Position numbers and translations under genes: made by a program. A DNA stretch of 24,000 nt from contig CCFE01000011.1 of NCBI GenBank assembly GCA_000752035.1, positions 397,099-421,098 on the forward strand. The letters run 5' to 3'. Source of the stretch: Bacillus rubiinfantis (lineage in GTDB: Bacteria; Bacillota; Bacilli; Bacillales; Cytobacillaceae). How positions within the stretch are numbered: the stretch's first letter is position 1; the number at the start of each line of letters is the position of its first letter. A model generated the notes under the pieces. The model was not told the DNA's origin. It did not search any database and was given only the letters and a program-made list of their open reading frames with translations. This document shows positions 1,375 to 23,604 of the stretch, in pieces.

Positions 1375-2289
1375 ATGAACCAAGAAAAATCAAAATCGAT
1401 TATTCTGCCGCTGATTATTGCCATCATTGGCATTTCTTTCTCATCCATTTTTGTTAAATGGTCAGATGCTCCTGCTTCTATTTTAAGTATGTACCGGATG
1501 TTTTTTGCCAGCGTACTATTAAGCCCTATGGTGTGGAAAAATCGTCAGCAGCTGCAAAAGGTCACTAAAAAGACGGTTCTGTTTTTATTTTTTTCCGGCG
1601 TGTTTTTGGCGTTTCATTTTGTTCTTTGGTTTAGTTCTTTAAAATATACGACTGTGGCAAGCTCCACAATTATTCTCGCCCTCCAGCCGATTGTTTCGCT
1701 AGTTGGCGGCTTCCTGCTGTTTAAAGAGCGGACAACTGCCTCGGCGCTCGTTACTATGATGCTGGCAATTATCGGGGCAATGATGATAGGCTGGGGTGAC
1801 CTAGGTTTAAGTCAGGAGGCATTATTGGGCGATTTATTCTCATTTTTTAGCGTGATTGCGGTTGTTGGCTACTTGCTAATCGGGCAAACAATCGTCAAAC
1901 AATTATCGCATTGGATTTACAGCTTCTCTGTTTTTTCCTGTGCCACCATTGTGTTAGTCATCTATAATCTCGTGACAGATGTGAGCTTTACTGGATATCC
2001 ATTGAAAGAATGGGGCATTTTCTTATTGCTGGCGATTGTACCGTCAATCAGCCATGTGATTAATAATTGGCTGTTAAATTATGTTAATGCTACAACGATT
2101 TCAATGAGCATCCTCGGGGAACCTGTCGGGGCCACCTTTCTCGCTTTCTTACTATTAGGGGAGCGGTTAACAGCTTGGCAAATAGCCGGCGGTGTGCTTG
2201 TTCTCATTGGTGTTGCAATGTTTCTAACTCACCAGCAAAGACGATCAGCCGTGACCGAAACGTATCAGCTGGAGGAGAAAACCTCATAA
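1375..2289 (+). CDS. EamA/DMT-superfamily permease (about 10 TM segments)
   Basis: 304-aa ORF, hydrophobic throughout, with the duplicated EamA-like architecture (two roughly 140-aa halves). RBS-like GAAAGGAAAC precedes the ATG. A strong hairpin lies downstream. Confidence 0.8.
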   Translation: MNQEKSKSIILPLIIAIIGISFSSIFVKWSDAPASILSMYRMFFASVLLSPMVWKNRQQLQKVTKKTVLFLFFSGVFLAFHFVLWFSSLKYTTVASSTIILALQPIVSLVGGFLLFKERTTASALVTMMLAIIGAMMIGWGDLGLSQEALLGDLFSFFSVIAVVGYLLIGQTIVKQLSHWIYSFSVFSCATIVLVIYNLVTDVSFTGYPLKEWGIFLLLAIVPSISHVINNWLLNYVNATTISMSILGEPVGATFLAFLLLGERLTAWQIAGGVLVLIGVAMFLTHQQRRSAVTETYQLEEKTS

Positions 2290-2340: not shown

Positions 2341-2376
2341 AACTGCAAAGGAGATTTACCGTTTTTTCTAAGCGAT

Positions 2377-2592
2377 ATCAGCAACTTTACCGATATATCA
2401 GCAATTCCGGCTGTGATATCAGTGCATTTTTGGAATTTATCAGCGATTCCAGCACAGATATCAGCGGGACTGCGAGGACTGCGCCCCGATTAGAAATATA
2501 TCAGCGATTTTGGAGCGGATATCAGCGAAAAATAAAATATATCAGCGCTTTTTCGAATATATCAGCGATCTTTTGAATAATCAGCGATTCGC
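2377..2592 (+). repeat. Direct-repeat array of the decamer ATCAGCGAWT: 10 copies at 19-21 bp spacing, with one 40-bp gap
   Basis: ATCAG cores start at 2377, 2397, 2418, 2439, 2460, 2500, 2521, 2541, 2561 and 2580. The best copies read ATATCAGCGATT. The array lies between convergent genes and ends 24 bp from the stop of the minus-strand deacetylase gene. Confidence 0.85.
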
Positions 2593-2615
2593 CAATTTTT
2601 CGGTAAATTATGTAA

Positions 2616-3356
2616 TTACCTTCCTTCCACTATTTCTGCAAATTCATCCAGTGTCGTGGAATTTTTCACGTAGATTCGCGGCAGATAATAGTGCTCGTCC
2701 TTGCTTCCTTTTTCGGTAAATAACTCTGGGGTTGTGGTGATGCCGAAGCGATAGTATTTCTTCGTTCCTGCAACGACCTTTTTATCAAAGTTTCCGTACG
2801 GATAGCTGAGGGCAATTACTGGCTTGCCAGTAATGGTTTCGATTTTTTCCTTCGAGTCCCTCAATTCATGCCGGTAATCTTCCGTTTTGGTCAAATCCGG
2901 ATGCGTTGCAGTGTGTGATTGAATCGAAAAATAACCAGATGCTGCCATCCTATGTAAATCTACTGGTGAAAGACGATTAGGTCGACCGGTAAAATCAGAT
3001 ATGACAAATATAGTAGCGGCAGGTTTAAATTGTGGTGTAGTCAGTTTTTGAAAAACTGCCGCAGCGTTTAGGTTGTTTTTATAACCATCATCAAAGGTAA
3101 TAAAAATCGGCTTGCTTACCTTTTCACGCTCATGCCATCTCTCAAAGGTTAGCAATGTAAAGCCATGGTCACGCAAATAGGTCATCTGTTTTTCAAAGTT
3201 TTCTGGTGTGACAAAAAGCTCTCTCCCAGGACCGCTGCCTTTATATGCAGCAAGTGAATGATAGACCAAAATTGGTATGGGTCGCTCGGCAGAAGCCTCT
3301 CGAGGCAAGAATCCTAGTAACCCAAAACATACTAGTAAAACGATATATTTTTTCAT
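2616..3356 (-). CDS. Secreted polysaccharide deacetylase (NodB homology domain)
   Basis: Has the FITFDDGY motif (NodB motif 1), the SHTATHPDL His motif, and an N-terminal signal peptide MKKYIVLLVCFGLLGFLPREASA. I prefer ATG at 3356..3354 (GAGGT 5 nt upstream) over the track start at 3368. Confidence 0.85.
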   Translation of the reverse strand: MKKYIVLLVCFGLLGFLPREASAERPIPILVYHSLAAYKGSGPGRELFVTPENFEKQMTYLRDHGFTLLTFERWHEREKVSKPIFITFDDGYKNNLNAAAVFQKLTTPQFKPAATIFVISDFTGRPNRLSPVDLHRMAASGYFSIQSHTATHPDLTKTEDYRHELRDSKEKIETITGKPVIALSYPYGNFDKKVVAGTKKYYRFGITTTPELFTEKGSKDEHYYLPRIYVKNSTTLDEFAEIVEGR

Positions 3357-3457
3357 CACAAACCTCACAAAAGATTGGATAGTTCACTTATTATTTTCTC
3401 CTCTATGTGATTACATTCATGAATTTAACATATTTTACATTTTTGAGCTTAACTGCT

Positions 3458-7206: not shown

Positions 7207-7485
7207 ATGAAGCGTATAGTTAAGATTGGTTTATCTGTTGGACTTGTTTTGGGGATTGGGTTTTCGGCTGAGAGTTCGTTACAGGTGGTTGATGCTAAGA
7301 CGAAGATTGTTTCGTTTAAGAATTGTAAGGAATTGAATAAGAAGTACAAAGGTGGTGTGGCAATATCCTCCAAGGTTAAAAATAGAGGAGGCAAAACTAA
7401 GTACAAGCCGTTTGTTTCAAAAGCATTATATAATGCCAACAAAAGTAGAGACCGTGATAAAGACGGCATTGCCTGCGAACGTTAA
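7207..7485 (+). CDS. Small secreted Excalibur (calcium-binding) domain protein
   Basis: Signal peptide, then a C-terminal DRDKDGIACE that matches the Excalibur DxDxDGxxCE loop. GAGGGAG RBS lies upstream of the ATG. Confidence 0.8.
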   Translation: MKRIVKIGLSVGLVLGIGFSAESSLQVVDAKTKIVSFKNCKELNKKYKGGVAISSKVKNRGGKTKYKPFVSKALYNANKSRDRDKDGIACER

Positions 7486-7559
7486 CTGGTAAGCCATATG
7501 GGAAATCTGTTCCAAGCAACGCGGGCGTAACGGCCAAACTTATTGGTAAATATGCCAGA

Positions 7560-8377
7560 GTTGTCCATTTGCGGCGGGCTATTGGACAACTTTTTCGAAA
7601 ATACGCCAGAGTTGTCCATTTGCGGCGGGCTATTGGACATCTTTTTCAAAAAAACACGAAAGTTGTCCATTTGCGGAGTTCTATTGGACAACTTTTTCCG
7701 AAAAACACGAAAGTTGTCCATTTGCGGGGTTCTATTGGACAACTTTTTCCGAAAAACACGAAAGTTGTCCATTTGCGGGGGGCTATTGGACAACTTTTTC
7801 GAAAATACACCATAGTTGTCCATTTGCGGGGTTCTATCGGACAACTTTTTCCGAAATACGCCAGAGTTGTCCATTTGCGGAGGGCTATTGGACAACTTTT
7901 TCGAAAATACACCATAGTTGTCCATTTGCGGGGGGCTATTGGACAACTTTTTCAAAAATACGCCAGAGTTGTCCATTTGCGGGGGGCTATTGGACAACTT
8001 TTTCGAAAATACGCCAGAGTTGTCCATTTGCGGAGTTCTATTGGACAACTTTTTCCGAAAAGCGCCAGAGTTGTCCATTTGCGGCGGGCTATTGGACAAC
8101 TTTTTCCGAAAAACACCAGAGTTGTCCATTTGCGGAGGGCTATTGGACAAGTTTTTCCGAAAAACACGAAAGTTGTCCATTTGCGGAGGGCTATTGGACA
8201 ACTTTTTCCGAAAAACACCAGAGTTGTCCATTTGCGGAGGGCTATTGGACAGCTTTTTCGAAAATACGCCAGAGTTGTCCATTTGCGGAGGGCTATTGGA
8301 CAACTTTTTCAAAAATACGCCAGAGTTGTCCATTAGCGGGGGGGCTATTGGACAGCTTTTTCGAAAATACGCCACAC
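7560..8377. repeat. Tandem array of 16 copies of a 51-bp unit containing an 8-bp-stem inverted repeat
   Basis: GTTGTCCA starts fall at 7560, 7611, 7662 and so on to 8325, all exactly 51 bp apart. The unit is GTTGTCCA-N15-TGGACAAC-TTTTTC(C)GAAAAWACRCCAGA. Long ORFs in four of six frames are a consequence of the repeat. Confidence 0.95.
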
Positions 8378-8435: not shown

Positions 8436-9086
8436 CTACTTTAGCAGGTCTATTACTTGATTTAAGTCATCGGCAATCGCATAGGCATTGGTTTTCATCT
8501 CATCATTTGGAGCAATGATGTCTGGAACGATGATACATTTGATACCGGCCCCGACAGCAGCTCGCAAGCCGTTAAGTGAATCTTCCAACACGAGTGCGGC
8601 GTCGGGTGCTACGTTGCCCCGTTTGCAGGCCTCGAGGAATATATCGGGATTCGGCTTCCCGTTCTCCACCTCTTCCCCGCTGACATAAAAATCAAAGCGA
8701 TCAGTAAAACCGGCAAGCGATAAATAGTGGTTAATCACTGCTTTGCTGCTTGACGAGGCGATACATTTTTTTATCCCGTTCTGGTCAAGAGCGGTCAATA
8801 AATTATCAGTTCCCGGCTTGACCATGATCCCTTCTTCCAGCAAAATGTTATCAAACTCCTGTCGATAATCAGCAACAATTGATGGAAACGAGAATTCCGG
8901 CCCATAAATTTCTTTCATAATGACATCACATTCATGATCGGCCACACCGATGATTGGCTTATAATGTTCCATTGGGAAGTCGTGCCCAAGCCTTACCATC
9001 ACCCGTCTCATCGCCTCATATGATGGCCGCTCAGTATCAAATAATAACCCATCCATGTCAAAAATGGCTAACTTTACCTCTTTCAC
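8436..9086 (-). CDS. HAD-IA family hydrolase (sugar-phosphatase / beta-phosphoglucomutase-like)
   Basis: HAD motif I is AIFDMDGLLFDTE. Motifs III/IV are GKPNPDIF ... LVLEDSLNGLRAAVGAG. GTG start with a GGAGGGGTG RBS. Confidence 0.85.
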   Translation of the reverse strand: MKEVKLAIFDMDGLLFDTERPSYEAMRRVMVRLGHDFPMEHYKPIIGVADHECDVIMKEIYGPEFSFPSIVADYRQEFDNILLEEGIMVKPGTDNLLTALDQNGIKKCIASSSSKAVINHYLSLAGFTDRFDFYVSGEEVENGKPNPDIFLEACKRGNVAPDAALVLEDSLNGLRAAVGAGIKCIIVPDIIAPNDEMKTNAYAIADDLNQVIDLLK

Positions 9087-9110
9087 TTAACCACCCCTCC
9101 TGTTTCTTGA

Positions 9111-9138
9111 AAAAAAGACAGAGAGAATCTCTCTGCCT
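9111..9138 (-). terminator. Rho-independent terminator or attenuator between the second SIS gene and the HAD gene
   Basis: Minus strand reads GGCAGAGAG-att-CTCTCTGTC followed by T7. The HAD RBS begins about 10 nt after the T run, so HAD expression may depend on read-through. Confidence 0.6.
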
Positions 9139-9182
9139 TATCTTTAAAAAGCTACAATAATACGCTAAAAAATGCAAGCCGA

Positions 9183-10193
9183 TTAATAATCAAATTGACG
9201 ATAGTAACGGCGCATGTCTAAATCATGACCGGTATATTTTTCATAGTGGCGGGCCAGGCGATCAACCAACAGAGTGGAAGAAATTGTTGGTGCTAAAATC
9301 CAGCGGAATTCCTCATCGATGCCTGGTAACTCATATTCTTTCGTATCGAGGACAACGAGCTTGTCAGTATATTGACGGCAGAACTTCTCAACCCGCTCAT
9401 CCAATACACGCCGCTTGCCTTCGCCTTTTACTAAAAATACCGGAACATCTTTATCGACTAATTCTAGTGTACCATGGAAAAATTCCGAAGAAGAAACAGC
9501 TTTCGTGCGAACCCATTGCATTTCCTCTAAAATACACATGGAGAATAAGTAGACCTCGCCCCACATTTCTCCGTCGCCAACCCAGATATTATATGGCTCA
9601 TTATAATAAGCTTTAGCAATTTCATCGGCAACCGGCTCAAATTTTTCCTTGGCCTGCAGTAGATTTTCCGGCAGTTTCGCCAATTGATCAGCAAAACGCT
9701 GATATTGCGGAAAGTCACCCGCATTTTCTAATAATTTGAAAACAAGCATAAATAATTGCATATATTCAAACTCGACGCCATTTAATGCCTTATTAGGGAT
9801 GACCCAGCGGCTGGCTTTTTCCAATGGAGTTCCAGGTGTGCCAACTAATGAGCAAACGCGGATGCCTTGCTCCTGACACCACTGTGCAGCTTTAACGGTT
9901 TCTTTCGTATCACCGGACTTAGATGCCATGATCACAATGGAATCCTTTGTTAATTGTTTATGGCCCGTTAACACAATTTCACCTGCCTGCTCGGTAAAAA
10001 CAGGAATACTAGTTACTTGTTTTAACATTTCTTGAATTGGCCACATAATCGAAATAGAACCACCAACAGAGATAAAGAAGATATTTTTAAAACCCTCTGC
10101 GGAAATCTCGTTAGCAACTCTTTCAATTTCGCCACGAGTTTCATAGGTAATCCGACCATTATTCATATACACATCACTATCAAATTTCAACAT
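9183..10193 (-). CDS. SIS-domain sugar-amine phosphate deglycase/isomerase-like protein (FrlB/GfrF-like)
   Basis: 336 aa. The phosphosugar-binding SIS signature reads FFISVGGS ... IVIMASKSGDTKET. GGAGGG RBS lies 8 nt upstream. The gene follows a PTS and a paralogous SIS gene. Confidence 0.8.
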   Translation of the reverse strand: MLKFDSDVYMNNGRITYETRGEIERVANEISAEGFKNIFFISVGGSISIMWPIQEMLKQVTSIPVFTEQAGEIVLTGHKQLTKDSIVIMASKSGDTKETVKAAQWCQEQGIRVCSLVGTPGTPLEKASRWVIPNKALNGVEFEYMQLFMLVFKLLENAGDFPQYQRFADQLAKLPENLLQAKEKFEPVADEIAKAYYNEPYNIWVGDGEMWGEVYLFSMCILEEMQWVRTKAVSSSEFFHGTLELVDKDVPVFLVKGEGKRRVLDERVEKFCRQYTDKLVVLDTKEYELPGIDEEFRWILAPTISSTLLVDRLARHYEKYTGHDLDMRRYYRQFDY

Positions 10194-10275
10194 GCTGTTA
10201 TCCCTCCAAATTGCAGTCTACAAGTCAATCTGCCGAACCGTTCTGAAGCAGTACGACAGACTGCCTTTCATACTA

Positions 10276-11358
10276 TCAAACTTTGCTTTTTAACACTTTA
10301 TCGAAGTCGTCGAAGATACGGACGCTTAAATCAATTCCTCTTCCGCTGGCAATTCGGTAGGAAAGGATTTGCAGCGGAATCGCCAGCAAGAGCGGGCTCA
10401 ACCATTCATCAGCATCCACATCTAGGCTCAAGGTCTTGACATCCACAGCATCCGCACCCGTAGAAAGCGAGAAACAATGGGTTGTGTACGCTCCTAAATA
10501 GTCCTTTAACATTTCTGTGCGAATCGCCAGTGGGCTGTTTGTTTTGATAAAAATAAGTCCATAGGAACTGTTCACTTCTAAATACGGTCCATGCATAAAA
10601 GCTTCAAGTTCAAAGCCCTGTGTCGGTACCCGTACGGTTTCAGTAAATTTCGTTTCGCCCTCTTTCGCTGTCCCTACGGTCGGGCCGTAGCCAATCAGCG
10701 CAAAACGGGGAATGGTAGTTAGTTCAGCGGCATGCGCCGTATAAAAACTCTCTGTTTTTTCGATAATTGCCGGGATTTGCTCGATTAAGCGCGTCAGTTT
10801 TGCTGTTTCTGCAGCACCTGCATCAGTTGTTAATTCTCCGAGAGCGGTCCCAGCCGCGATGGCCATTAACATCGAAGTCAGCACCGTCGCGGTAAACCCT
10901 TTCGTGACAAAGCCAACTTTTTCAACACCGCAGCCGATATCGATTACTGAATCGGCATGCGCCGTAATTGGGCTGTCAAGGTTAGAAGTTAGTACAGCAG
11001 TTGCTACTTTCCCCTCAGCATGAACCTTCTTCACGGCTTCGATTGTCGAATAGCTATGGCCGCTTTGCGAAACGGCGAGAACAAAATCAATCGACGGCTT
11101 TACTTTTTCATAATGAACAAAGTTAAATGGCTCTTGAATTTCGATCGACACACCCGCCGTTTTTTCCATATAGTATTTCGCACTTAACATGGCATTAGCA
11201 CTGGACCCTGTTGCCAGTACGAGCCAATTCTTTGGCTGCTTTTCACGCATTAATTCCGTGAAAGCGGCCAGCCGATCAGCTGCCTGCGCAATGATATCAT
11301 GGCAAACCTGGGGCTCTTCATGGATATACGTCATCATTGTTTCTTGCACTCTCATCAC
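10276..11358 (-). CDS. Double-SIS-domain protein (GlmS C-terminal / AgaS / GfrE-like deglycase or ketose-aldose isomerase)
   Basis: 360 aa. Contains TYIHEEPQV, LVLATGSSANA and LAVSQSGHSYST motifs typical of SIS isomerising domains. The start is uncertain: GTG/ATG at 11358..11353 or ATGATG at 11337..11332. Confidence 0.8.
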   Translation of the reverse strand: MMRVQETMMTYIHEEPQVCHDIIAQAADRLAAFTELMREKQPKNWLVLATGSSANAMLSAKYYMEKTAGVSIEIQEPFNFVHYEKVKPSIDFVLAVSQSGHSYSTIEAVKKVHAEGKVATAVLTSNLDSPITAHADSVIDIGCGVEKVGFVTKGFTATVLTSMLMAIAAGTALGELTTDAGAAETAKLTRLIEQIPAIIEKTESFYTAHAAELTTIPRFALIGYGPTVGTAKEGETKFTETVRVPTQGFELEAFMHGPYLEVNSSYGLIFIKTNSPLAIRTEMLKDYLGAYTTHCFSLSTGADAVDVKTLSLDVDADEWLSPLLLAIPLQILSYRIASGRGIDLSVRIFDDFDKVLKSKV

Positions 11359-11411
11359 CTGTTTCTACTCTGTGATTTGCGTTTTGACTCATTTACTTGT
11401 ATGAGTAATGT

Positions 11412-11505
11412 CTGGCACTTTGTAGCTCTCTTGCCGCTAGCACTTGTAATTTTTTCCGCTTCCGCTTATAACTTTTGCCGGCAGCATTTGTAGCTCTTAC
11501 CGCTG
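11412..11505. repeat. Two copies of a roughly 24-bp direct repeat in the 150-bp intra-operon gap after EIID
   Basis: GCACTTTGTAGCTCTCTTGCCGCT (11415..11438) and GCATTTGTAGCTCTTACCGCT (11484..11504), with CCGCTTCCGCTTATAAC between them. Confidence 0.6.
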
Positions 11506-11508
11506 CCC

Positions 11509-12372
11509 TTACCCCAAAATACCAGTCCAGGCGCCTAAAATCCCGACTACGGCAATGCCAATCAAAATGGTGGTGGCCTTAAAGCCTTTGCCGAGCAGCC
11601 AATAAATGATACCGAACGCGGCTAATGGTAACAGCCCTGGCATAATCCCGTTTAGTATCTCCTGAACCTTTGTGGCGCTGTCGCCGCTGCCGATTTTTAA
11701 CGGAACACTGAGGCTGATCATCGAAGCACTCATGCCGCCGATGACCATCAAGCCGAGAATGGCGGCTCCAAGTGTTAAGCTATCCATCATGCCATTCTGT
11801 TGAATCCGTTGCAAAAAGCCGGTTCCTGCTTTAAAGCCAAGTCTTGTAAACAAGAAGCGCAGCAAAATATGTGGTACGTTAAACACGAGCAAGAATAAAA
11901 TCGGTCCGAGAATATTTCCTTGCAGCGCAAGTGAAGTACCAATCCCAGTGGCAATCAGCCGTAATGTGCCCCAATAAAACGAGTCGCCTAATCCTGCCAG
12001 CGGGCCCATTAACGAAGCTTTAACACCATTTATCGCTGATGAATCAAACTGTTTATCTTCCGCATTTTGTTTTTCCATCGCTGCCGAAATACCAAGCATA
12101 AAGGTGGCGATATGCGGTGTCGTGTTAAAAAACTCGAGATGCCGCTTGAGCGCTGCTGAAAGATCTTCTTTTTTCTTATATAATTTTTTCAATACTGGAA
12201 TCATTGCATATGTGTAGGCCATGTTCATTTGCCGCTCATAGTTCCACGAGAATTCCATCTGAAATGAGCGCCAAAAGACGCGGTTCAAATCCTTTTTGCT
12301 GATTTCAATTTCTTGACCTTGTCCCTGCTCCTGAACAGATTCTTGATTAGAAGTCTTCATCGTCGTCATCAC
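11509..12372 (-). CDS. PTS mannose/fructose/sorbose-family EIID component
   Basis: 287 aa with the typical IID N-terminus (VFWRSFQMEFSWNYERQMNMAYTYAM) and C-terminal TM segments. It overlaps the EIIC 3' end by 14-26 nt depending on the start chosen. Confidence 0.9.
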   Translation of the reverse strand: MMTTMKTSNQESVQEQGQGQEIEISKKDLNRVFWRSFQMEFSWNYERQMNMAYTYAMIPVLKKLYKKKEDLSAALKRHLEFFNTTPHIATFMLGISAAMEKQNAEDKQFDSSAINGVKASLMGPLAGLGDSFYWGTLRLIATGIGTSLALQGNILGPILFLLVFNVPHILLRFLFTRLGFKAGTGFLQRIQQNGMMDSLTLGAAILGLMVIGGMSASMISLSVPLKIGSGDSATKVQEILNGIMPGLLPLAAFGIIYWLLGKGFKATTILIGIAVVGILGAWTGILG

Positions 12373-13135
12373 TCACCACTCCTCCTTGATTAGCACCTGC
12401 TAGGCTGACTTTCTGATTATGCATGATATTCACCATAATAACTGCGACAATTGCACCAAGAAGGGCAATGCCTGTTACCGGAACCTTTAGATAAGCAACG
12501 ATTAGAAAACCTAAGAAGAAATATGGAACCACTTTTTTATTAATTAACAAGCGTGCTAACATTGCAAAACCTAGTGCTGGCAGGATGCCCGTGGCAATTT
12601 GCAAGCCGGTTTGTATAAAGTCTGGAATGGCATTAAGAACATGTTTAATCGCATCGCTGCCGACATAGAAGGAAACCGTCACAATGATCGCGAGCATGAG
12701 TGACAGACCGAAGCCGCCGATTAAGTGCATCGCCTCAATTCCCCTCGTGTTGCCATCCTCGGCATATTTATCGGCTTTATGGGCTAGCACCGGTAAGAAC
12801 AGACCTAAGTAAATATTTTTCAAAACAAGCGTGAACGTTGCAATCGGCAACCCAAGTAACAGGGCTGTTTCTGTTCCTGCCCCAGACGAGATGGCAAAGG
12901 CCGTTCCGAGCACACCACCAGTGACAACATCAGGCGGAATCGCCGCGCCGACTGAGAATGAGCCGATGAAGGCTAACTCTAATGTTGCCCCCATAATGAC
13001 ACCTGTTTTAATATCGCCCATTACCAGACCTACGAAAAATCCGGTCACAAGCGGGCGTGAAAGTAAGCTTGTTCCCAACGCATATTCACTTTGCGCAACA
13101 AAGGCAACCAAACCTAAAAGTAATGCAGTCAACAT
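12347..13135 (-). CDS. PTS mannose-family EIIC component
   Basis: 262-aa polytopic membrane protein adjacent to IIB and IID. Ends in the acidic tail VVSDDDDEDF. Confidence 0.9.
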   Translation of the reverse strand: MLTALLLGLVAFVAQSEYALGTSLLSRPLVTGFFVGLVMGDIKTGVIMGATLELAFIGSFSVGAAIPPDVVTGGVLGTAFAISSGAGTETALLLGLPIATFTLVLKNIYLGLFLPVLAHKADKYAEDGNTRGIEAMHLIGGFGLSLMLAIIVTVSFYVGSDAIKHVLNAIPDFIQTGLQIATGILPALGFAMLARLLINKKVVPYFFLGFLIVAYLKVPVTGIALLGAIVAVIMVNIMHNQKVSLAGANQGGVVSDDDDEDF

Positions 13136-13163
13136 GAGTATCCCTCCCTAACCAAAAGTGCGT

Positions 13164-13634
13164 TTACAGCACATTTTGGGCTAATATTTTTTTATCGCTG
13201 GGCACTTGGCGAATCTCCACCTCAACACCCTGAGCCATCATTTTTTTCACTAATTCTTCCTCATCCGGCAAAAGATTAACGGCTTTCGAAATATTTCGGG
13301 CCCCTTCCTTCGCCTTGATGCCGCCTAAATTCACCTGCTTAATCTCTGGGTAAGCACTGACAAGTTTTTCCGCATCAGCGACTGATTCCACGACAATGAA
13401 CAACTTGTATTTATCGGTTACGCCGCTTTTTAACGCTTCAATGGAGTCTGCGATATTCTTAATGACCAGGCGAACTCCCTGTGGCTTGGCCAGTTTGATG
13501 GTTGTTTTCCGCAGCTCATTTACGGGAACATCATCATTGGCAATTAAGATGCAATCAGCTCCTAAATTGTTCGTCCATGAAAAAGCCACTTGGCCATGCA
13601 ATAAACGGTGATCAACACGTAAAAGTTTAATCAT
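13164..13634 (-). CDS. PTS mannose/sorbose-family EIIB component
   Basis: N-terminus MIKLLRVDHRLLHGQV contains the conserved phospho-histidine motif (DxRLxHGQV). Confidence 0.9.
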   Translation of the reverse strand: MIKLLRVDHRLLHGQVAFSWTNNLGADCILIANDDVPVNELRKTTIKLAKPQGVRLVIKNIADSIEALKSGVTDKYKLFIVVESVADAEKLVSAYPEIKQVNLGGIKAKEGARNISKAVNLLPDEEELVKKMMAQGVEVEIRQVPSDKKILAQNVL

Positions 13635-13651
13635 TTCACTCCATCCTTTCG

Positions 13652-14071
13652 TTAAAAATCCTCATCCTCACTATCCCCAGCCAATTCTGGATTGCAATAC
13701 TTAATCGATGACTTTGAGTTCTTAAGGGCCTTCTCGATTAATTCTGCAGTAGCGATTGCGCTATTTTTTAAAGTGACCAGTTCAATCACTAACGGCAAAT
13801 TCATCCCGGCAATGAGATGAATTCGTTTATCTCCGAGTCGATTCATAAACTCATTGTTGACACTGCCGCCAAAGATATCGCTTACAATAATGAGTTCATC
13901 AGTTTCTGCTAATTTGTCACAGACATCATTTATCTGCAATTGGAGGTCGACCTCTTCCTCAACATAGGCAGACAAGGTCCAAATATCCTTTTGCGCACCG
14001 GTAATCATTTCGACGGAATGGAGCATCCCCTCAGCAAGCCTGCCGTGAGAAGCCAATAATATATATCGCAC
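13652..14071 (-). CDS. PTS mannose-family EIIA component
   Basis: (V)RYILLASHGRLAEG matches the EIIA-Man N-terminal His loop. GTG start with GGAGGTG 7 nt upstream. Ends in GDSEDEDF. Confidence 0.9.
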   Translation of the reverse strand: MRYILLASHGRLAEGMLHSVEMITGAQKDIWTLSAYVEEEVDLQLQINDVCDKLAETDELIIVSDIFGGSVNNEFMNRLGDKRIHLIAGMNLPLVIELVTLKNSAIATAELIEKALKNSKSSIKYCNPELAGDSEDEDF

Positions 14072-14129
14072 GTTCGCACACCTCCTTTTTTAAAAAATGT
14101 TTTATAATTTTTCACTCTACCCTTATTAA

Positions 14130-14145
14130 TGCAAAAAGCGTGCCA
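14130..14145 (-). promoter_or_regulatory. Sigma-54 (-24/-12) promoter of the PTS operon
   Basis: Minus strand reads TGGCAC-GCTTT-TTGCA, an exact match to TGGCAC-N5-TTGCA. It lies about 60 nt upstream of the EIIA start and directly downstream of a gene for a sigma-54 activator. Confidence 0.85.
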
Positions 14146-14161
14146 ACTTAGTGGCACGCCG
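14133..14161 (-). terminator. Terminator hairpin of the regulator gene, overlapping the sigma-54 promoter
   Basis: Minus strand reads GCGTGCCA-CTAAGT-TGGCACGC-TTTTT, starting 11 nt after the TAG stop. The 3' arm is the -24 box, and the T run forms the promoter spacer plus the first bases of the -12 box. Confidence 0.6.
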
Positions 14162-14171
14162 CTTATTTTTT

Positions 14172-16958
14172 CTAAAAATCTTCGTCATCGCTTGCTACAG
14201 CAGCTAAGTAATCGTAAATATAGCCGATTTCTGCTGTATTGATTTTGACATTATAAATTGATTCTATGACACTAAAAGCCTCTTGGATGTATTTAATCAT
14301 CTCTTTTTGACACTGTTCGAAATTTTCAAGATGTTCATACGTATCAATCGGCGCCTGACGGATTAATCGCTCCACCAAACAGCTGACATGGACATAAAGG
14401 GCAACTTTTTTATCATTAGGCAGCCGTTGGTTTAGTCGAATTTCTAAACGATGGATAAACTCTTCCGCCTGGGAAAGAATTTTTTCCGAATCCAGTATCG
14501 TCAATGATTCAATCACTCGCTGCAGGGAAAAATTCCGAAGCAAATTATCATTAATTTCTTTATATCGTGCTTCCTCCATGATTGACAGAAAGATTTTCCG
14601 CATCGTCGCTTCGCCCTGACCTGAGATAATATCCTCCAGTGATAGATACGGTACATCGGCAATTCCCGGATTGGCTGTGCCCACAATTGCAAGAACGTCA
14701 TGCAGTTGAAAAATCGCCTCCGAGGACCCAAGTTCTTTTAAGCGCTCAAAATCATACGCCTGAACTTGGAGCGCTAAATCCGCTGGCATGCTTGCCTCCA
14801 GCAATTTTTGAATTTGCAAGGCCGTTCCCATGCCTGTTAGACAGGTGGTAATAATCACTTTTTCCTTCGCTTTTTCTGGGTAAATAATATTATATTCGGT
14901 TTGGTTGGCTTGGCGTAATTTTTCCAGCATCTCTTCTAAAAATAAATCCTGCTCCAGCATGCTGCCGAGGAATAACGCCATTTGTGTCGATACATTATTA
15001 ATGATCGCGACCGGTCCATTGAGCTGCTGTTTAAATTGGGCATGAATATCTTTTAAAGAGCCCATATCGACTAAGAGGATGAGCCCCTTCGAGATGTCGT
15101 GATGTTCAATATAATGGTAGACCTTCGCCGCTATTTCCTCTACAGAAATGTCTAGCGGCATATCAAAAGCCTCAAATACATTTTTCTTCAAGAGCCGATT
15201 AGCGACATTGGCAATACTGCTGGCGGTTGCATAGCCATGCGCGAGAATAATTGCCTTCACTTGTTGGTTGCTTCGTTCAATCGCGACACTCCGCAAATAA
15301 AGGCTGAGAAAGATTTCATCCATTTGTTCCAGTTTCACTTCTAATCTACTTTCTAACAGATGGACAAAATGGTTCGCCAGCTGCTGCTCGAGCTTATATG
15401 ATTCTTCAATATAGTTTGCCAGTTGTTCAATCATGCTCTCCTGTCTTTCATGCCAGCGCAAATCGGCATTGCCTTTGTAATAGAGGAAATGGGCAATGGC
15501 GTAAATACTATTGCCATTAAATTGAACGTGATAATTTGTCTCTAAAAATTGGATAATTTCTTGGACACTTATCGTCGTGAGTTCGAGCCAAACGCCGGCA
15601 TCCTCCTTTGACCCGGTAAAGATAAGCTGATCAAACAGCAGCTGAATACCTTGAAAAACTTTTTGCTCAAAGACAGCTGCCGTTAGTTTTTTTGCCTGGT
15701 GTTCTTCATATAACAGCAACAATTGTGCAAAACTTTTCTTAATCAATTGTACCTGCGAGAGGTTTGTCTCGGTTAATTGCTCCAGGGCAGCATCAGGGGC
15801 AATTACAATATCATGGTTCTGTTTTACTTTATAGTCGGTTTTGCGCAGTGTTTCTTCCAAAATTCGATCTGGAAGATGGTGTAACGTAATCCGCACCTCT
15901 TCTGCTTCGCGATTTTTCGCAAATGATGAACCGGCAATATATTGAATAGTGTTTTTCAAGTCACCCATATTTCCGGGATAATGATAGCTTGTTAACGCCT
16001 CGAGAATTCGGCGGGTCAGCTGAAGCGGTTTGCCCAATTTTTGTGCTTCCTGTAATAAAAACATGTAAACAAATTGGCGCTTCTCCTTTTCACCGCGCTC
16101 ATCCAAGCTCGGAATAGTGACGCGGATCGGAATCCGTCGCAGGAAGGTCGGTAAAAAGTTAGCGGCCAAATCCTCCGTTGTCGCAAAAATCAGACGGACG
16201 TTTGCGTGATGGTTGCCTTCACTTTCCCCCATGCGGCGGTACACGCCTTGGTCGAGAAATGTGAATAGTTTCTCCTGCCCCTCCGCATTCAGGCGATGGA
16301 CTTCATCTAAAAATAAAATTCCGCCATCCGCCGCGGCCAGCAAGCCATCCTTTGTTTTCTCCGCACCTGTAAACGCACCTTTGACATAACCAAATAGATT
16401 GCTTGACATCAGCTCCGGATTGTTGGCATATTGCGCACAGTTGAAGCTGATAAACGGGGCATTTTGGTCGATGATTCCCTTTTCAACACTGTAGCGATGG
16501 ATGAGGCCGGCGGTAAAGCTCTTGCCAACACCTGTCGGGCCGACGAGAATCAGCGGCAGGCCGGTTCCTGGATAATAGATAGACGTTTTAATTTGCTCAA
16601 TCGCCTTTTTCAGACTGCCATCAGCACCAATTAAACGAGAAAAAATATCATGCTCCTCTTCCCGCGGCTCCGGCTGTTGCGCCTGCAACTCTTGAAAACT
16701 TTGAAAAATATGAGTAGACAGCAGCGGGAAAAATTTCTGTTCAAAGGTCGAGCGGCTCAAAAAATAGACCGGCCGCGTGTTAATTTTTATCACTCTACCC
16801 TCTTCCACCAGCTGGTTAAGATAGTGACTTACCGTGTTGCGTTTGACAACAAAGCACGCAGACATGGAGCTTGCCGTCAGCTTTTCAGAAGGATTGTCCC
16901 AATCAAAGCTTGTCGTTTCTTGTTCTAAAAATGCCAGTAATCTTTCTTTCAGGCTCAT
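14172..16958 (-). CDS. LevR/ManR-type sigma-54-dependent transcriptional activator (HTH, AAA+ domain, then PRD / EIIA-like / EIIB-like / PRD)
   Basis: 928 aa. Walker A is GPTGVGKS, with the sigma-54 contact motif GAFTGA and GGILFLDEVHRL. The long C-terminal PRD/PTS-regulation region is typical of LevR. GGGGGTG RBS. Ends in ASDDEDF. Confidence 0.9.
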   Translation of the reverse strand: MSLKERLLAFLEQETTSFDWDNPSEKLTASSMSACFVVKRNTVSHYLNQLVEEGRVIKINTRPVYFLSRSTFEQKFFPLLSTHIFQSFQELQAQQPEPREEEHDIFSRLIGADGSLKKAIEQIKTSIYYPGTGLPLILVGPTGVGKSFTAGLIHRYSVEKGIIDQNAPFISFNCAQYANNPELMSSNLFGYVKGAFTGAEKTKDGLLAAADGGILFLDEVHRLNAEGQEKLFTFLDQGVYRRMGESEGNHHANVRLIFATTEDLAANFLPTFLRRIPIRVTIPSLDERGEKEKRQFVYMFLLQEAQKLGKPLQLTRRILEALTSYHYPGNMGDLKNTIQYIAGSSFAKNREAEEVRITLHHLPDRILEETLRKTDYKVKQNHDIVIAPDAALEQLTETNLSQVQLIKKSFAQLLLLYEEHQAKKLTAAVFEQKVFQGIQLLFDQLIFTGSKEDAGVWLELTTISVQEIIQFLETNYHVQFNGNSIYAIAHFLYYKGNADLRWHERQESMIEQLANYIEESYKLEQQLANHFVHLLESRLEVKLEQMDEIFLSLYLRSVAIERSNQQVKAIILAHGYATASSIANVANRLLKKNVFEAFDMPLDISVEEIAAKVYHYIEHHDISKGLILLVDMGSLKDIHAQFKQQLNGPVAIINNVSTQMALFLGSMLEQDLFLEEMLEKLRQANQTEYNIIYPEKAKEKVIITTCLTGMGTALQIQKLLEASMPADLALQVQAYDFERLKELGSSEAIFQLHDVLAIVGTANPGIADVPYLSLEDIISGQGEATMRKIFLSIMEEARYKEINDNLLRNFSLQRVIESLTILDSEKILSQAEEFIHRLEIRLNQRLPNDKKVALYVHVSCLVERLIRQAPIDTYEHLENFEQCQKEMIKYIQEAFSVIESIYNVKINTAEIGYIYDYLAAVASDDEDF

Positions 16959-17047
16959 AACATCACCCCCTAGAAAAGTAAAATCAGATAGATTAGTACC
17001 ATCTTAACATAAGTCATATAATGTTATAGGTTGAATTTTTGAAAATG

Positions 17048-17084
17048 CAAAAAGTGCCAGGCACCGTAAGTTGGTCCTGACACT
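17048..17084 (-). terminator. Candidate rho-independent terminator downstream (minus sense) of the ATTAGCGAAT array
   Basis: Minus strand reads AGUGUCAGG (17084..17076), a 14-nt loop, then CCUGGCACU (17061..17053), giving a 9-bp stem with one G-U pair, followed by U4-5. This would place the whole repeat array inside the 3' UTR of the dioxygenase transcript. Confidence 0.45.
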
Positions 17085-17135
17085 TGTTATTGGCTTAGAA
17101 AATTTTTTGCGAATTAAGTGGTTTTATGTGGATTT

Positions 17136-17412
17136 ATTAGCGGTTTTGAGCAGTTTATGAGCGAATTTAAACAGGATATTAGCGAATTTTAGAGTTTATT
17201 AGCGAATCCAAGCAGGATATTAGCGAATTTTAGAGTTTATTAGCGAATCCTAACAGGATATTAGCGAATTTATCAGTTTATTAGCGAATTCAAACAGGAT
17301 ATTAGCGAATTTTAGAGTTTATTAGCGAATCCAAGCAGGATATTAGCGAATTTATCAGTTTATTAGCGAATCCTAACAGGATATTAGCGAATTTCCAAAT
17401 ATATTAGCGAAT
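17136..17412 (+). repeat. Direct-repeat array of ATTAGCGAAT: 14 copies with alternating 21/20-bp spacing, giving a 41-bp higher-order unit
   Basis: Cores start at 17136, 17157 (ATGAGCGAAT), 17178, 17198, 17219, 17239, 17260, 17280, 17301, 17321, 17342, 17362, 17383 and 17403. The array ends 17 bp from the stop of the minus-strand dioxygenase gene. Confidence 0.9.
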
Positions 17413-17428
17413 CGAAAAAAGCGCCAGT

Positions 17429-18274
17429 TTAGATGACGAGCCTGATACGATTTCCCGAGGGATCACTGGTGAGATAGTCATCTCCTTGTTCTTGGATCGG
17501 TGCGCCGAGCTGCTTGAGCTTGGTGATGACCGTTTCCCTCCCATCAGCGTCATGGTAAACAATCGTATACGAGGCTAAACCGACACTGTTATCCGCCGGC
17601 TGTTTGGCTCCGATTCCCTGCCAGGTGTTAATCGCGATATGATGGTGATATCCGCTCGTTGAAAGGAACACGGCCTGTGGGTAATAGCTGACCACTTCGA
17701 AGCCGAGTCCATTTGTATAAAATTCCTGTGCTGCCTGCAAATCAGCAACATGGAGATGGATATGTCCCATAACGGTGCCCTCAGGTAAACCTGTCCATGC
17801 TTCATCACATTCTGAGAGAATCCCTTCTGAATCCAGCGGATCGGTCGCCATTTCGACAAGCCCATTTTTCCATTGCCATTCAGCTGCTGGACGGTCGCGA
17901 TAGACCTCAATCCCATTCCCGTCCGGATCATTGAGGTAAAGCGCCTCACTAACAAGATGATCTGCAGCTCCAAGCGGATAGCCCGTTTTTAGAATGTGTC
18001 GGAGGAAACGAGCGAAATCAGCCCTTGACGGCAGTAAAATTGCAAAATGGTAAAGTCCTGTTGTCCGCGGTTCTTTTGCAATGACATTGATGGGCTGTTC
18101 AAGCGTCAAGAGCGGTGTGCTGCCGTCAGCGGTCAGCACCGCTTTTTGCGCAGTTTGTTCTAAAACTTGGAAGCCAAGAATTTTTTGATAAAATTTTACG
18201 GAGGCGTTGAAATTTTTGACCTTAATGGTCACATCACTAACGTATACGGTTGGCTTTTGGTGGAAATGATTCAT
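17429..18274 (-). CDS. Two-domain VOC-family (glyoxalase / extradiol ring-cleavage dioxygenase) protein, CatE/Mhq-like
   Basis: 281 aa with two glyoxalase-like halves (VKFYQKILGFQVLE and QEFYTNGLGFEVVS) and the His/Glu metal-ligand pattern HFAILLP ... HIHLHV. GAGGT RBS. The overlapping 132-aa ORF is out of frame and rejected. Confidence 0.8.
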   Translation of the reverse strand: MNHFHQKPTVYVSDVTIKVKNFNASVKFYQKILGFQVLEQTAQKAVLTADGSTPLLTLEQPINVIAKEPRTTGLYHFAILLPSRADFARFLRHILKTGYPLGAADHLVSEALYLNDPDGNGIEVYRDRPAAEWQWKNGLVEMATDPLDSEGILSECDEAWTGLPEGTVMGHIHLHVADLQAAQEFYTNGLGFEVVSYYPQAVFLSTSGYHHHIAINTWQGIGAKQPADNSVGLASYTIVYHDADGRETVITKLKQLGAPIQEQGDDYLTSDPSGNRIRLVI

Positions 18275-23246: not shown

Positions 23247-23567
23247 AAAAAACCACGCCCCTATCAATTTTTAGAATCGATAAGGACGTGGTTGGAATCA
23301 CGTGGTACCACCTTAATTTACTGACTGCTCACGCAAATCAGCCTCTGCAAGTACGGAGCTCTCATTAGTTATGGCTCTTTATACTGTGGTATGGATAACG
23401 AGTACCAAATCTCGACGGAACCTACTTCAATCAGTAAATCGGGATATCTCCCTAGATTGTTTCAGCACGCAGCTCCGAGGCCATTGTTCGGATTGATATT
23501 TTTGCTTCTTTTCAGCTACCGAAGCTCTCTGTGAAAAAATAACACAATCGTACTTTCCCTCTTCAAC
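23247..23567 (-). promoter_or_regulatory. T-box leader (tRNA-sensing riboswitch) with terminator; probable Met (AUG) specifier
   Basis: Read on the minus strand. Stem I carries an AGTA box, the AGAGAG bulge and a distal loop GGTAGCTGAAAA. The specifier loop is CGAACA-ATG-G (ATG = complement 23482..23484), closed by CCTC pairing with GAGG. The T-box sequence AATTAAGGTGGTACCACG is at 23318..23301. The terminator AACCACGTCCTTATC ... GATAGGGGCGTGGTT plus T6 is at 23295..23247. Confidence 0.85.
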
Positions 23568-23604
23568 GCTTTATAACTTTTTATTGAGTTTGAAAATTTA
23601 CTCA

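Follow-up and report, generated by a model that had tools for sequence, protein, structure and literature searches.

The array of short direct repeats that occupies positions 2375 to 2603 of the window (the whole 24,000-nucleotide stretch of contig CCFE01000011.1 of Bacillus rubiinfantis considered here) is, as judged from sequence comparison, one copy of a family of dispersed, polar and non-coding repeat elements of the Bacillaceae and their relatives. This array, which we call A1, has a counterpart in the same window, A2, and both show the pattern by which the family is recognized: at least three head-to-tail units, each with the core T(T/A)TAT(C/T)AGCGA(T/A) followed by a variable filler, at a spacing of 20–21 bp and in non-coding intergenic DNA (10 units in A1, 14 in A2). 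As to what such an element could be doing, the reading that we favor, and to which we would give somewhat less than an even chance, is that it is a phased array of predicted binding sites for a sequence-specific DNA-binding factor, within an element that would grow and shrink by the duplication and loss of units. The arrays themselves are the following:

2375 to 2603, plus strand: array A1, ten units, core (A/T)TATCAGCGA(T) plus variable filler, period 19–21 bp.
2458 to 2497, plus strand: double-length 40-bp unit of A1, with the duplication GGACTGCG-A-GGACTGCG at 2467–2483, as read from the sequence.
17135 to 17422, plus strand: array A2, 14 units, core TATTAGCGAAT, 20- and 21-bp units alternating, same orientation as A1.

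The ten cores of A1 start at 2377, 2397, 2418, 2439, 2460, 2500, 2521, 2541, 2561 and 2580 of the plus strand, where an earlier examination of the letters alone (the sequence-only reading) had placed them, with core-to-core distances of 20, 21, 21, 21, 40, 21, 20, 20 and 19 bp, and the double-length interval does contain the internal duplication which that reading had described. The exact heptamer ATCAGCG is present in seven of the ten, the leftmost three being degenerate (ATCAGCA twice, and ATCAGTG), and the 3′ terminal unit is ATCAGCGATTCGCCAA, as that of A2 is ATTAGCGAATCGAAAA, so that the polarity of the family, degenerate units at the 5′ side and a 3′ terminal GCGA(T/A)TCG, can be recognized in the left cores of A1 and in the ends of both arrays. 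Position by position, information is high in the core of A1 and low in the filler, and Tandem Repeats Finder calls in it 2536–2588 alone (2.7 copies, the last units), because the fillers between the cores are almost unrelated from unit to unit; in other words, A1 is a periodic-core array and not a classical tandem repeat. In A2, unlike A1, the units form a regular dimer of 41 bp, which the same program calls at 6.9 copies with a score of 396, and above it there is a higher-order period of 123 bp (score 456). Over the 24-kb window the motif TATYAGCG occurs 21 times against 1.46 expected, a number reached by none of 100 dinucleotide shuffles, and 19 of these matches fall inside A1 or A2. Given that units of 19, 20 and 21 bp are mixed and that stop codons are found in all six frames (1–7 per frame in A1, 6–10 in A2), both arrays must be regarded as non-coding. 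Nor is there significant RNA folding in them (z of −2.6 and −0.8 on the two strands of A1, and +1.1 for A2), or a match to any family in the Rfam search, and the units contain no inverted repeat of the kind represented by the REP/BIME palindromes.

Each of the two arrays possesses its own form of the core, as the sequence-only reading had proposed, with no cross-over: ATCAG is found in 10 of 10 units of A1 and ATTAGCG in none, while ATTAGCG is found in 13 of the 14 units of A2 and ATCAGCG in none. The mean identity between cores is 0.83 within A1, 0.95 within A2 and 0.74 from one array to the other, and that between fillers is 0.48 within A1, no better than the 0.52 obtained between A1 and A2; therefore, the cores of A1 have been kept while the rest decayed, and the internal homogenization previously attributed to this array holds for its cores and fails for its fillers. 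The similarity of the units of A1 to those of A2 withstood the comparison with shuffled controls, since beyond the core the summed best-match score is 31 against −5.3 ± 6.3, a value that none of 2000 shuffles reached, and omission of the last 3 nt still leaves it at 15, as compared with −8.1 ± 6.0 for the shuffles. Some of this similarity may be due to a shared positional composition (T-rich directly after the core) and not to descent. In both arrays there is an alternation of units of the “TCC...GAT” and “TTTT...” types.

The proposal that these arrays are a dispersed and maintained element, and not an accident of slippage, is borne out by homologous arrays in at least four other genera and by arrays at equivalent positions in related organisms. 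In a census done on relatives of the source organism, the same core and period were found in Lysinibacillus, Neobacillus, Alkalibacillus and B. thuringiensis, as well as in low-GC metagenome contigs. With one genome per species, the pattern scan yielded clear arrays at 11 loci of Lysinibacillus, 3 of Neobacillus and 1 of Alkalibacillus, together with about 40 further matches that, estimated from the specificity of the pattern, are of the chance type; the metagenome scan added at least some 28 low-GC arrays of the family type, amid ordinary perfect repeats of 7 and 21 bp. When 309 units from about 40 arrays were pooled, conservation was apparent at positions outside the search anchor (T at −1 with 1.8 bits, T at −3 with 1.2, A at +7 with 1.2 and T at +8 with 1.1), it fell to about 0 bits at +12 to +16, and the spacing was of 21 bp in 225 cases and of 20 bp in 46, with few other values. 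All this points, therefore, to a footprint of approximately 13 bp repeated every two turns of the helix, with the consensus TTTATCAGCGAT (in A1 the form ATATCAGCGAT; the family core is also written as TWTATYAGCGAW, at the 20–21 bp spacing), in which some 5–8 bases per unit are free. A dimer order of 40–42 bp is frequent among the arrays of the family, and their 5′ ends are on average more degenerate than their 3′ ends, although the trend is modest.

Two of these genomes illustrate the range of forms. In Lysinibacillus sp. BPa_S21 (L001, 964–2371) there are 68 units of 21 bp, that is, 34 dimers of 42 bp, which extend over 1.4 kb past the terminator of a flagellin gene; in a second array of the same locus the first core provides the TGA stop of a NERD-domain gene. 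In B. thuringiensis YB6 (NZ_CP151868.1, 1–150000; L186–L188) there are six elements in 150 kb, each of 4–6 units of 20–21 bp and about 100–130 bp in length. Seven copies, these six, from as many loci, and one from Bacillus sp. N5-665, can be aligned over their full length; their limits are sharp, and they close with the conserved motif ATATCGACTTAYCGACAAA. The last unit of A1 matches the penultimate unit, ATCGGCGATTCGACAA, of the B. thuringiensis elements; the polarity of the family is therefore conserved across genera. In the searchable literature, the repeat was not found described, either by its exact core and terminal sequences or by keyword. Two further observations concern the B. thuringiensis record: C-rich CCCCAYCC motifs recur in the flanks of several of its copies, so that a larger composite repeat may exist, and the record is labeled as a plasmid, yet it carries chromosomal housekeeping genes (dapF, lipA, the suf operon, metG, tyrS and murB).

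The evolution of the arrays can be followed at loci where the flanking genes serve as a reference, which in the window are these:

1375 to 2289, plus strand: EamA-family transporter gene (PF00892, 8e-32), left neighbor of A1 and convergent with the deacetylase gene; also present in Neobacillus mesonae.
2302 to 2338, both strands: GC-rich hairpin with a 15-bp stem, between the EamA stop and A1 (−29.6 kcal/mol, z −7.5 on the plus strand; −29.2, z −6.7 on the minus strand).
2616 to 3368, minus strand: polysaccharide deacetylase gene (246–250 aa), its stop at 2616–2618, 26 nt past the last core of A1.
14172 to 16958, minus strand: gene of a LevR-type sigma-54 activator, with A2 and the terminator upstream of it, both in the window and in the contig L181, which comes from a metagenome and belongs to a related organism.
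17040 to 17085, minus strand: canonical intrinsic terminator (stem 17052–17085, U-tract 17040–17051; −18.5 kcal/mol, z −3.3), then UUUUUGCAUUUU.
17429 to 18274, minus strand: VOC/glyoxalase-family gene, its stop 12 nt from the right end of A2.

The deacetylase has its best non-self homologue in N. mesonae (75% identity), and the best non-self matches of two proteins that flank the arrays, in N. mesonae and its relatives, are 74–75% identical; by this protein comparison, the source organism is a member of the Bacillaceae related to Neobacillus. The hairpin on the far side of A1 is indeed as strong as had been claimed (z −7.5), has a weak U-tract, UUUAAC, on the plus strand and none on the minus strand, and is likely the terminator of the EamA gene. 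As for A2, the canonical terminator lies beyond the array as viewed from the glyoxalase gene, and A2 is therefore probably within the 3′ UTR (untranslated region) of that gene.

What emerges from the comparison of these loci is that the chromosomal position of the arrays is kept while the number of units changes and the core can change. In N. mesonae the gene order is that found at A1 (deacetylase, array, bidirectional terminator, EamA), and the array has the core TTATTTCGCSG; another array lies upstream of the deacetylase gene, with ATTATTCCGCC as its core. The unit-by-unit orthology of A1 and the N. mesonae array was not accepted, as the statistics are only borderline (a score of −2 against −10.7 ± 4.6, with 4.7% of the shuffles reaching −2). 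Contig L181 contains a glyoxalase 75% identical to that of the window, and also an array, a homologous terminator and then LevR, arranged as at A2; the core of this array, on the equivalent strand, is TTTACCCGTC, and the glyoxalase gene is found elsewhere on the contig and not beside the array. Hence, the position of an array can outlive both the sequence of its core and the gene that adjoins it. As regards the number of units, two loci are common to four species of Lysinibacillus, one with 4, 6, 7 and 7 units and the other with far larger differences, and at one Lysinibacillus locus there are 3 units in a genome and 23 in a metagenome contig.

Two observations of a different order were made at these loci. 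The public annotation of N. mesonae (L051, 10730–10990) includes a hypothetical protein of 86 aa exactly over the array, which is likely an annotation artifact of the 21-bp periodicity. Besides, when positions 8436–18274 of the window are set against 1–12000 of L181 the gene order differs, the glyoxalase of L181 following a HAD gene, at the site occupied in the window by another array, of 51-bp units; this suggests that a rearrangement took place, and each of the two sites that differ has a repeat array in it or close by.

The genes that flank the arrays are unrelated in function (flagellin, NERD nuclease, PanD, an NlpC/P60 protein, an ABC ATPase, the deacetylase, glyoxalases), and the arrays favor the intergenic space at the 3′ ends of genes: in the annotated B. 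thuringiensis stretch, convergent genes flank four of the six, and no array there has divergent neighbors. The terminators that could be detected are mostly located between the flanking genes and the array (on the core strand, 15 of 21 to the left; on the opposite strand, 15 of 17 to the right), and many arrays are found past the terminators of both neighbors, for example after those of flagellin and groEL. The orientation with respect to the adjacent gene changes with the genus: in the window and in Lysinibacillus, an antisense gene has its stop next to the 3′ end of the array, while in B. thuringiensis it is the 5′ end that adjoins the stop of a co-oriented gene, three of the six elements starting 10–30 bp past it and being followed by a terminator. 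The sequence-only reading had noted that both arrays start beside the stop codon of a minus-strand gene; this is correct for the window and frequent in Lysinibacillus and Neobacillus, and does not hold as a rule for the family, as B. thuringiensis and L181 demonstrate. A stop-codon or 3′-UTR rule, in which about 18 of 21 arrays seemed at first to lie just past the stop of an antisense gene and every core variant contained a TGA or TAA, was accordingly dropped, because the metagenome arrays, the positions of the terminators and the opposite orientation in B. thuringiensis contradict it. Strict replication polarity was also rejected, since the bias in GC skew described below, although real, is confounded by the orientation of the genes and admits definite exceptions.

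If we accept the reading favored above, each core would be the binding site of a trans-acting, sequence-specific DNA-binding protein, and the spacing of two helical turns would place successive protomers on one face of the duplex, in a phased nucleoprotein array. The arrays would grow and shrink as units, or blocks of units, are duplicated and lost by strand slippage or unequal exchange, the duplication of blocks being shown by the 41- and 123-bp higher-order repeats of A2, and core variants would become fixed array by array. The bound complex could have a role for the host, as a roadblock to transcription or replication or in the organization of the chromosome at the ends of genes, or it could benefit nothing but the propagation and maintenance of the element itself. 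A role at the level of DNA is favored over one at the level of mRNA by the terminators interposed between genes and arrays and by an orientation relative to the gene that varies with the genus.

Several observations weigh against this reading: (i) no binding protein was identified, nor any neighboring gene common to the loci among the flanks examined; (ii) the cores differ within a single genome (ATCAGCGAT and ATTAGCGAAT here, TTATTTCGCSG and ATTATTCCGCC in N. mesonae), and in L015 the core GGGTTGGCGGCG grades into TTTATCAGCGATG, so that a single factor would need a relaxed specificity; (iii) the core is not palindromic, and we know of no regulator motif that fits it; (iv) no consistent intrinsic bend was found with a wedge model (end-to-end ratio), in which A1 did not differ from shuffles (z of 0.1) and the others, among them A2 (z of −1.4), did so only weakly; (v) both arrays of the window are probably transcribed, placed as they are after the stop of a gene and ahead of the first strong hairpin; (vi) and finally, the strand that reads ATCAGCG is the one with negative GC skew in 19 of 21, 20 of 28 and 4 of 6 arrays of three sets (43 of 55 in total), a bias of orientation that simple binding to sites does not account for. 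The DnaA box, Spo0A box, cre half-site, Chi (AGCGG), ARG boxes and PurBox were compared with the core by eye; the resemblances were partial or inconsistent in strand, and none is claimed.

A more ambitious version of the same idea, to which we would give little weight, is that the arrays could be the chromosomal cis-sites of a system extended throughout the Bacillaceae, in which a conserved protein would polymerize on the phased cores at the ends of genes, with an orientation biased by replication, and act as a polar roadblock or organizer (in read-through transcription, in encounters between replication and transcription, or in the compaction of the chromosome, for example). The specificity of that protein would co-evolve with the cores, which would explain the wholesale switch of core at one locus between sister species.

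An alternative explanation, which we consider doubtful, albeit the one to be taken most seriously, is that of a neutral or selfish minisatellite without a dedicated factor, produced by slippage between identical cores and by molecular drive, spread by occasional recombination and harmless at the 3′ ends of genes. Much of what has been presented is in agreement with it: the variable number of units at orthologous loci (4, 6, 7 and 7; 3 as opposed to 23), the recent duplication of blocks that can be seen in the higher-order repeats of A2, the greater average degeneration of the 5′ ends of the arrays, the replacement of an entire core at an orthologous position, and a convergent or 3′ intergenic location such as that of many selfish repeats; STAR elements, moreover, behave alike and have no known function. 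What this explanation does not accommodate well is A1 itself, whose fillers are saturated (0.48) and give no sign of recent duplication, yet whose cores stand at 0.83, given that drive requires ongoing births of units. Furthermore, a homology of 9–13 bp is short for homogenization by recombination, and the core and the terminal unit have been kept across Lysinibacillus, Neobacillus and the B. cereus group.

It seems rather improbable that the element acts at the level of RNA, that is, that the array, as a 3′ UTR or as a small RNA of its own, would offer an unstructured platform to an RNA-binding protein, an RNase or an sRNA (small RNA) and would thereby tune the stability or the termination of the neighboring mRNA. 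In its favor could be cited the position of the two arrays of the window, each with the stop of a minus-strand gene on one side and, on the other, the strong hairpin or terminator that comes next, that of the orthologous array of N. mesonae, between the deacetylase stop and the bidirectional terminator, and the three of six B. thuringiensis elements that lie 10–30 bp past the stop of a co-oriented gene with the terminator after them, as well as the STAR repeats in the 3′ UTR of vigR in S. aureus, a 3′ UTR that is reported to be needed for virulence. However, the transcribed strand would be antisense to the core here and in Lysinibacillus and would have the sense of the core in B. thuringiensis, many arrays are situated past the terminators of both neighbors, neither a conserved structure nor an Rfam match was obtained, and a strict period of 20–21 nt would have no obvious sense for a single-stranded RNA.

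The closest analogue that has been described is the STAR element of Staphylococcus aureus, at least by the likeness of its layout, and with this precedent the family is best placed as a newly seen case of interspersed, intergenic arrays of cores and spacers, and not as a new category. STAR elements are direct repeats scattered through intergenic DNA, in which a short conserved core alternates with locus-specific spacers; their loci are stable, their unit number is fluid, and neither their function nor their mechanism of dispersal is known (PMC3532100). Some copies are reported to be within the UTRs of mRNAs. The A1/A2 family has in common with them the arrangement of core and spacer, the intergenic location and the variable number of units. 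It departs from them in its core, TTTATCAGCGAT as opposed to a GC-rich 14-mer, T(G/A/T)TGTTG(G/T)GGCCC(C/A), and in its strict period of 20–21 bp with spacers of about 8–12 bp, where STAR has at least 40 bp between cores and a period of about 55 bp (PMC3532100); in addition, it keeps one core across several genera and some positions between species, whereas the locations of STAR are reported as not conserved between staphylococcal species (PMC3532100). In the window the 14-mer signature has a single match, with 2 mismatches, against 1.2 expected, and it falls outside the arrays.

With other repeat families the resemblance is more limited. The MIRU, which Supply and co-workers are said to have described in 1997 and 2000, are reportedly units of 46–101 bp with small open reading frames (ORFs) that overlap the stop and start codons of their neighbors; they share with the present family the dispersed, intergenic tandem units downstream of genes and the variable copy number, but here the units are of 19–21 bp, are not in frame and contain stops in every frame. 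As to bcr1–bcr18 of the B. cereus group, these are also dispersed, non-coding intergenic repeats of the same taxon, and the B. thuringiensis copies (about 100–130 bp) are within their range of sizes. As described, bcr1 has about 155 bp, direct-repeat flanks of 5 bp (TTTAT) and a cruciform-like RNA fold, and groups B and C average approximately two copies per strain, whereas what we find is an unstructured array of subrepeats of 20–21 bp with 6 copies in 150 kb; judged by these descriptions, and above all by copy number and the lack of structure, identity with a bcr element is unlikely. The REP/BIME, BOX and ERIC elements are built on palindromic stem-loops, and REP/BIME bind host proteins (gyrase, IHF). 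They coincide with the family in their preference for 3′ or convergent intergenic space and in their many copies per genome, and differ from it in that the arrays have neither an inverted repeat nor significant folding.

That the array is a known system in disguise, be it the iterons of a plasmid or a phage, a partition centromere, a CRISPR-like array or a coding heptad repeat, is very improbable. Iterons and ParR/omega-type centromeres do consist of head-to-tail direct repeats of about 20 bp (20–22 bp being typical of iterons and of some ParR-type centromeres), on one helical face and with one protomer or dimer each, which is the mechanism proposed here for the cores; on the plasmid or phage that bears them they adjoin, however, the rep or par gene (iterons within an origin that has an AT-rich unwinding element and a DnaA box), with one or two copies per replicon, while the copies of the family are many and are scattered over the chromosome beside unrelated housekeeping genes. 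No Rep-family domain occurs in any ORF of the window, no parA-, parM- or tubZ-type gene in the window or beside the arrays examined, and no cas domain or mobile-element gene in the window. A BLAST search of a plasmid collection with a 321-bp A1 region matched only chromosome-like Bacillus records mislabeled as plasmids, another such search gave no match, and the pattern scan of viral contigs gave only chance matches of two cores. The succession of cores and fillers has a superficial likeness to a repeat-spacer array, but CRISPR arrays have repeats of about 23–47 bp, unique spacers of about 26–72 bp and usually cas genes, and with cores of about 13 bp the fillers of 7–12 bp are far below the size of a CRISPR spacer; a coding repeat is ruled out by the mixture of 20- and 21-bp units and the stops in all frames. 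Finally, chance clustering or a one-off product of local slippage, which could appeal to the mere 2.7 copies that Tandem Repeats Finder sees in A1, is scarcely credible in the face of 21 motif matches where 1.46 are expected (a number that no shuffle out of 100 attained), of a sister array at a distance of 15 kb whose units are significantly similar, and of the homologues present both in other genera and at the orthologous position.

With function inferred from sequence comparison, this is a widespread, conserved and apparently unannotated family that is open to experiment. If the cores do bind a protein, each genome of a large group of well-studied bacteria, including the B. cereus/thuringiensis/anthracis group, would contain many overlooked phased binding arrays, on the order of 40 per Mb if the B. 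thuringiensis stretch, with its 6 copies per 150 kb, is typical, and these could influence termination, the length of 3′ UTRs, local topology and the organization of the chromosome. Independently of what they do, the arrays interrupt short-read assemblies (one contig terminates within an array), give rise to spurious ORF calls such as the 86-aa “gene” of N. mesonae, and can serve as natural VNTR (variable number tandem repeat) markers. The family also offers a clean setting for the study of concerted evolution, with arrays that stay in place, gain or lose units freely and can exchange one core for another.

The window contains a third array that adjoins the end of a gene and belongs to a family other than that of A1 and A2, namely a tandem repeat of 51 bp at 7537–8374 (16.4 copies, 90% matches, Tandem Repeats Finder score 1207). 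Each of its units has an inverted repeat of 8 bp, GTTGTCCA...TGGACAAC, and then TTTTTC, so that the whole resembles a row of terminator-like hairpins; it starts about 60 bp past the stop (8436) of a minus-strand HAD hydrolase gene, and the ORF of 297 aa that runs across it (7482–8375) is probably spurious. On the minus strand, at 23279–23575, there is a T-box leader that matches Rfam RF00230 over its full length (111.5 bits).

Outside the window, some arrays resemble the family in part. In an Acidobacteriota metagenome-assembled genome (MAG; L013, 7490–7870) there are arrays with a period of 20–21 bp and variable fillers and with a different core, CACRCYRMTACGG, from which it may be supposed that an architecture of cores every two helical turns also exists outside the Bacillota. 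In Bacteroidota MAGs (L002, 3130–3225; L024, 3935–4010) short arrays have TTTATCAGCG or ATTAGCG and then a sequence of the GCGAAGC type, the motif of a stable GNA mini-hairpin; these were probably caught through the search pattern alone and may be unrelated. In Bacillus sp. FJAT-29814 (L052, 18720–18810), four 21-bp units, GGATAAGCGCGTCCAACTTGC, are located upstream of flgM, with a variant of the core and the same general layout.

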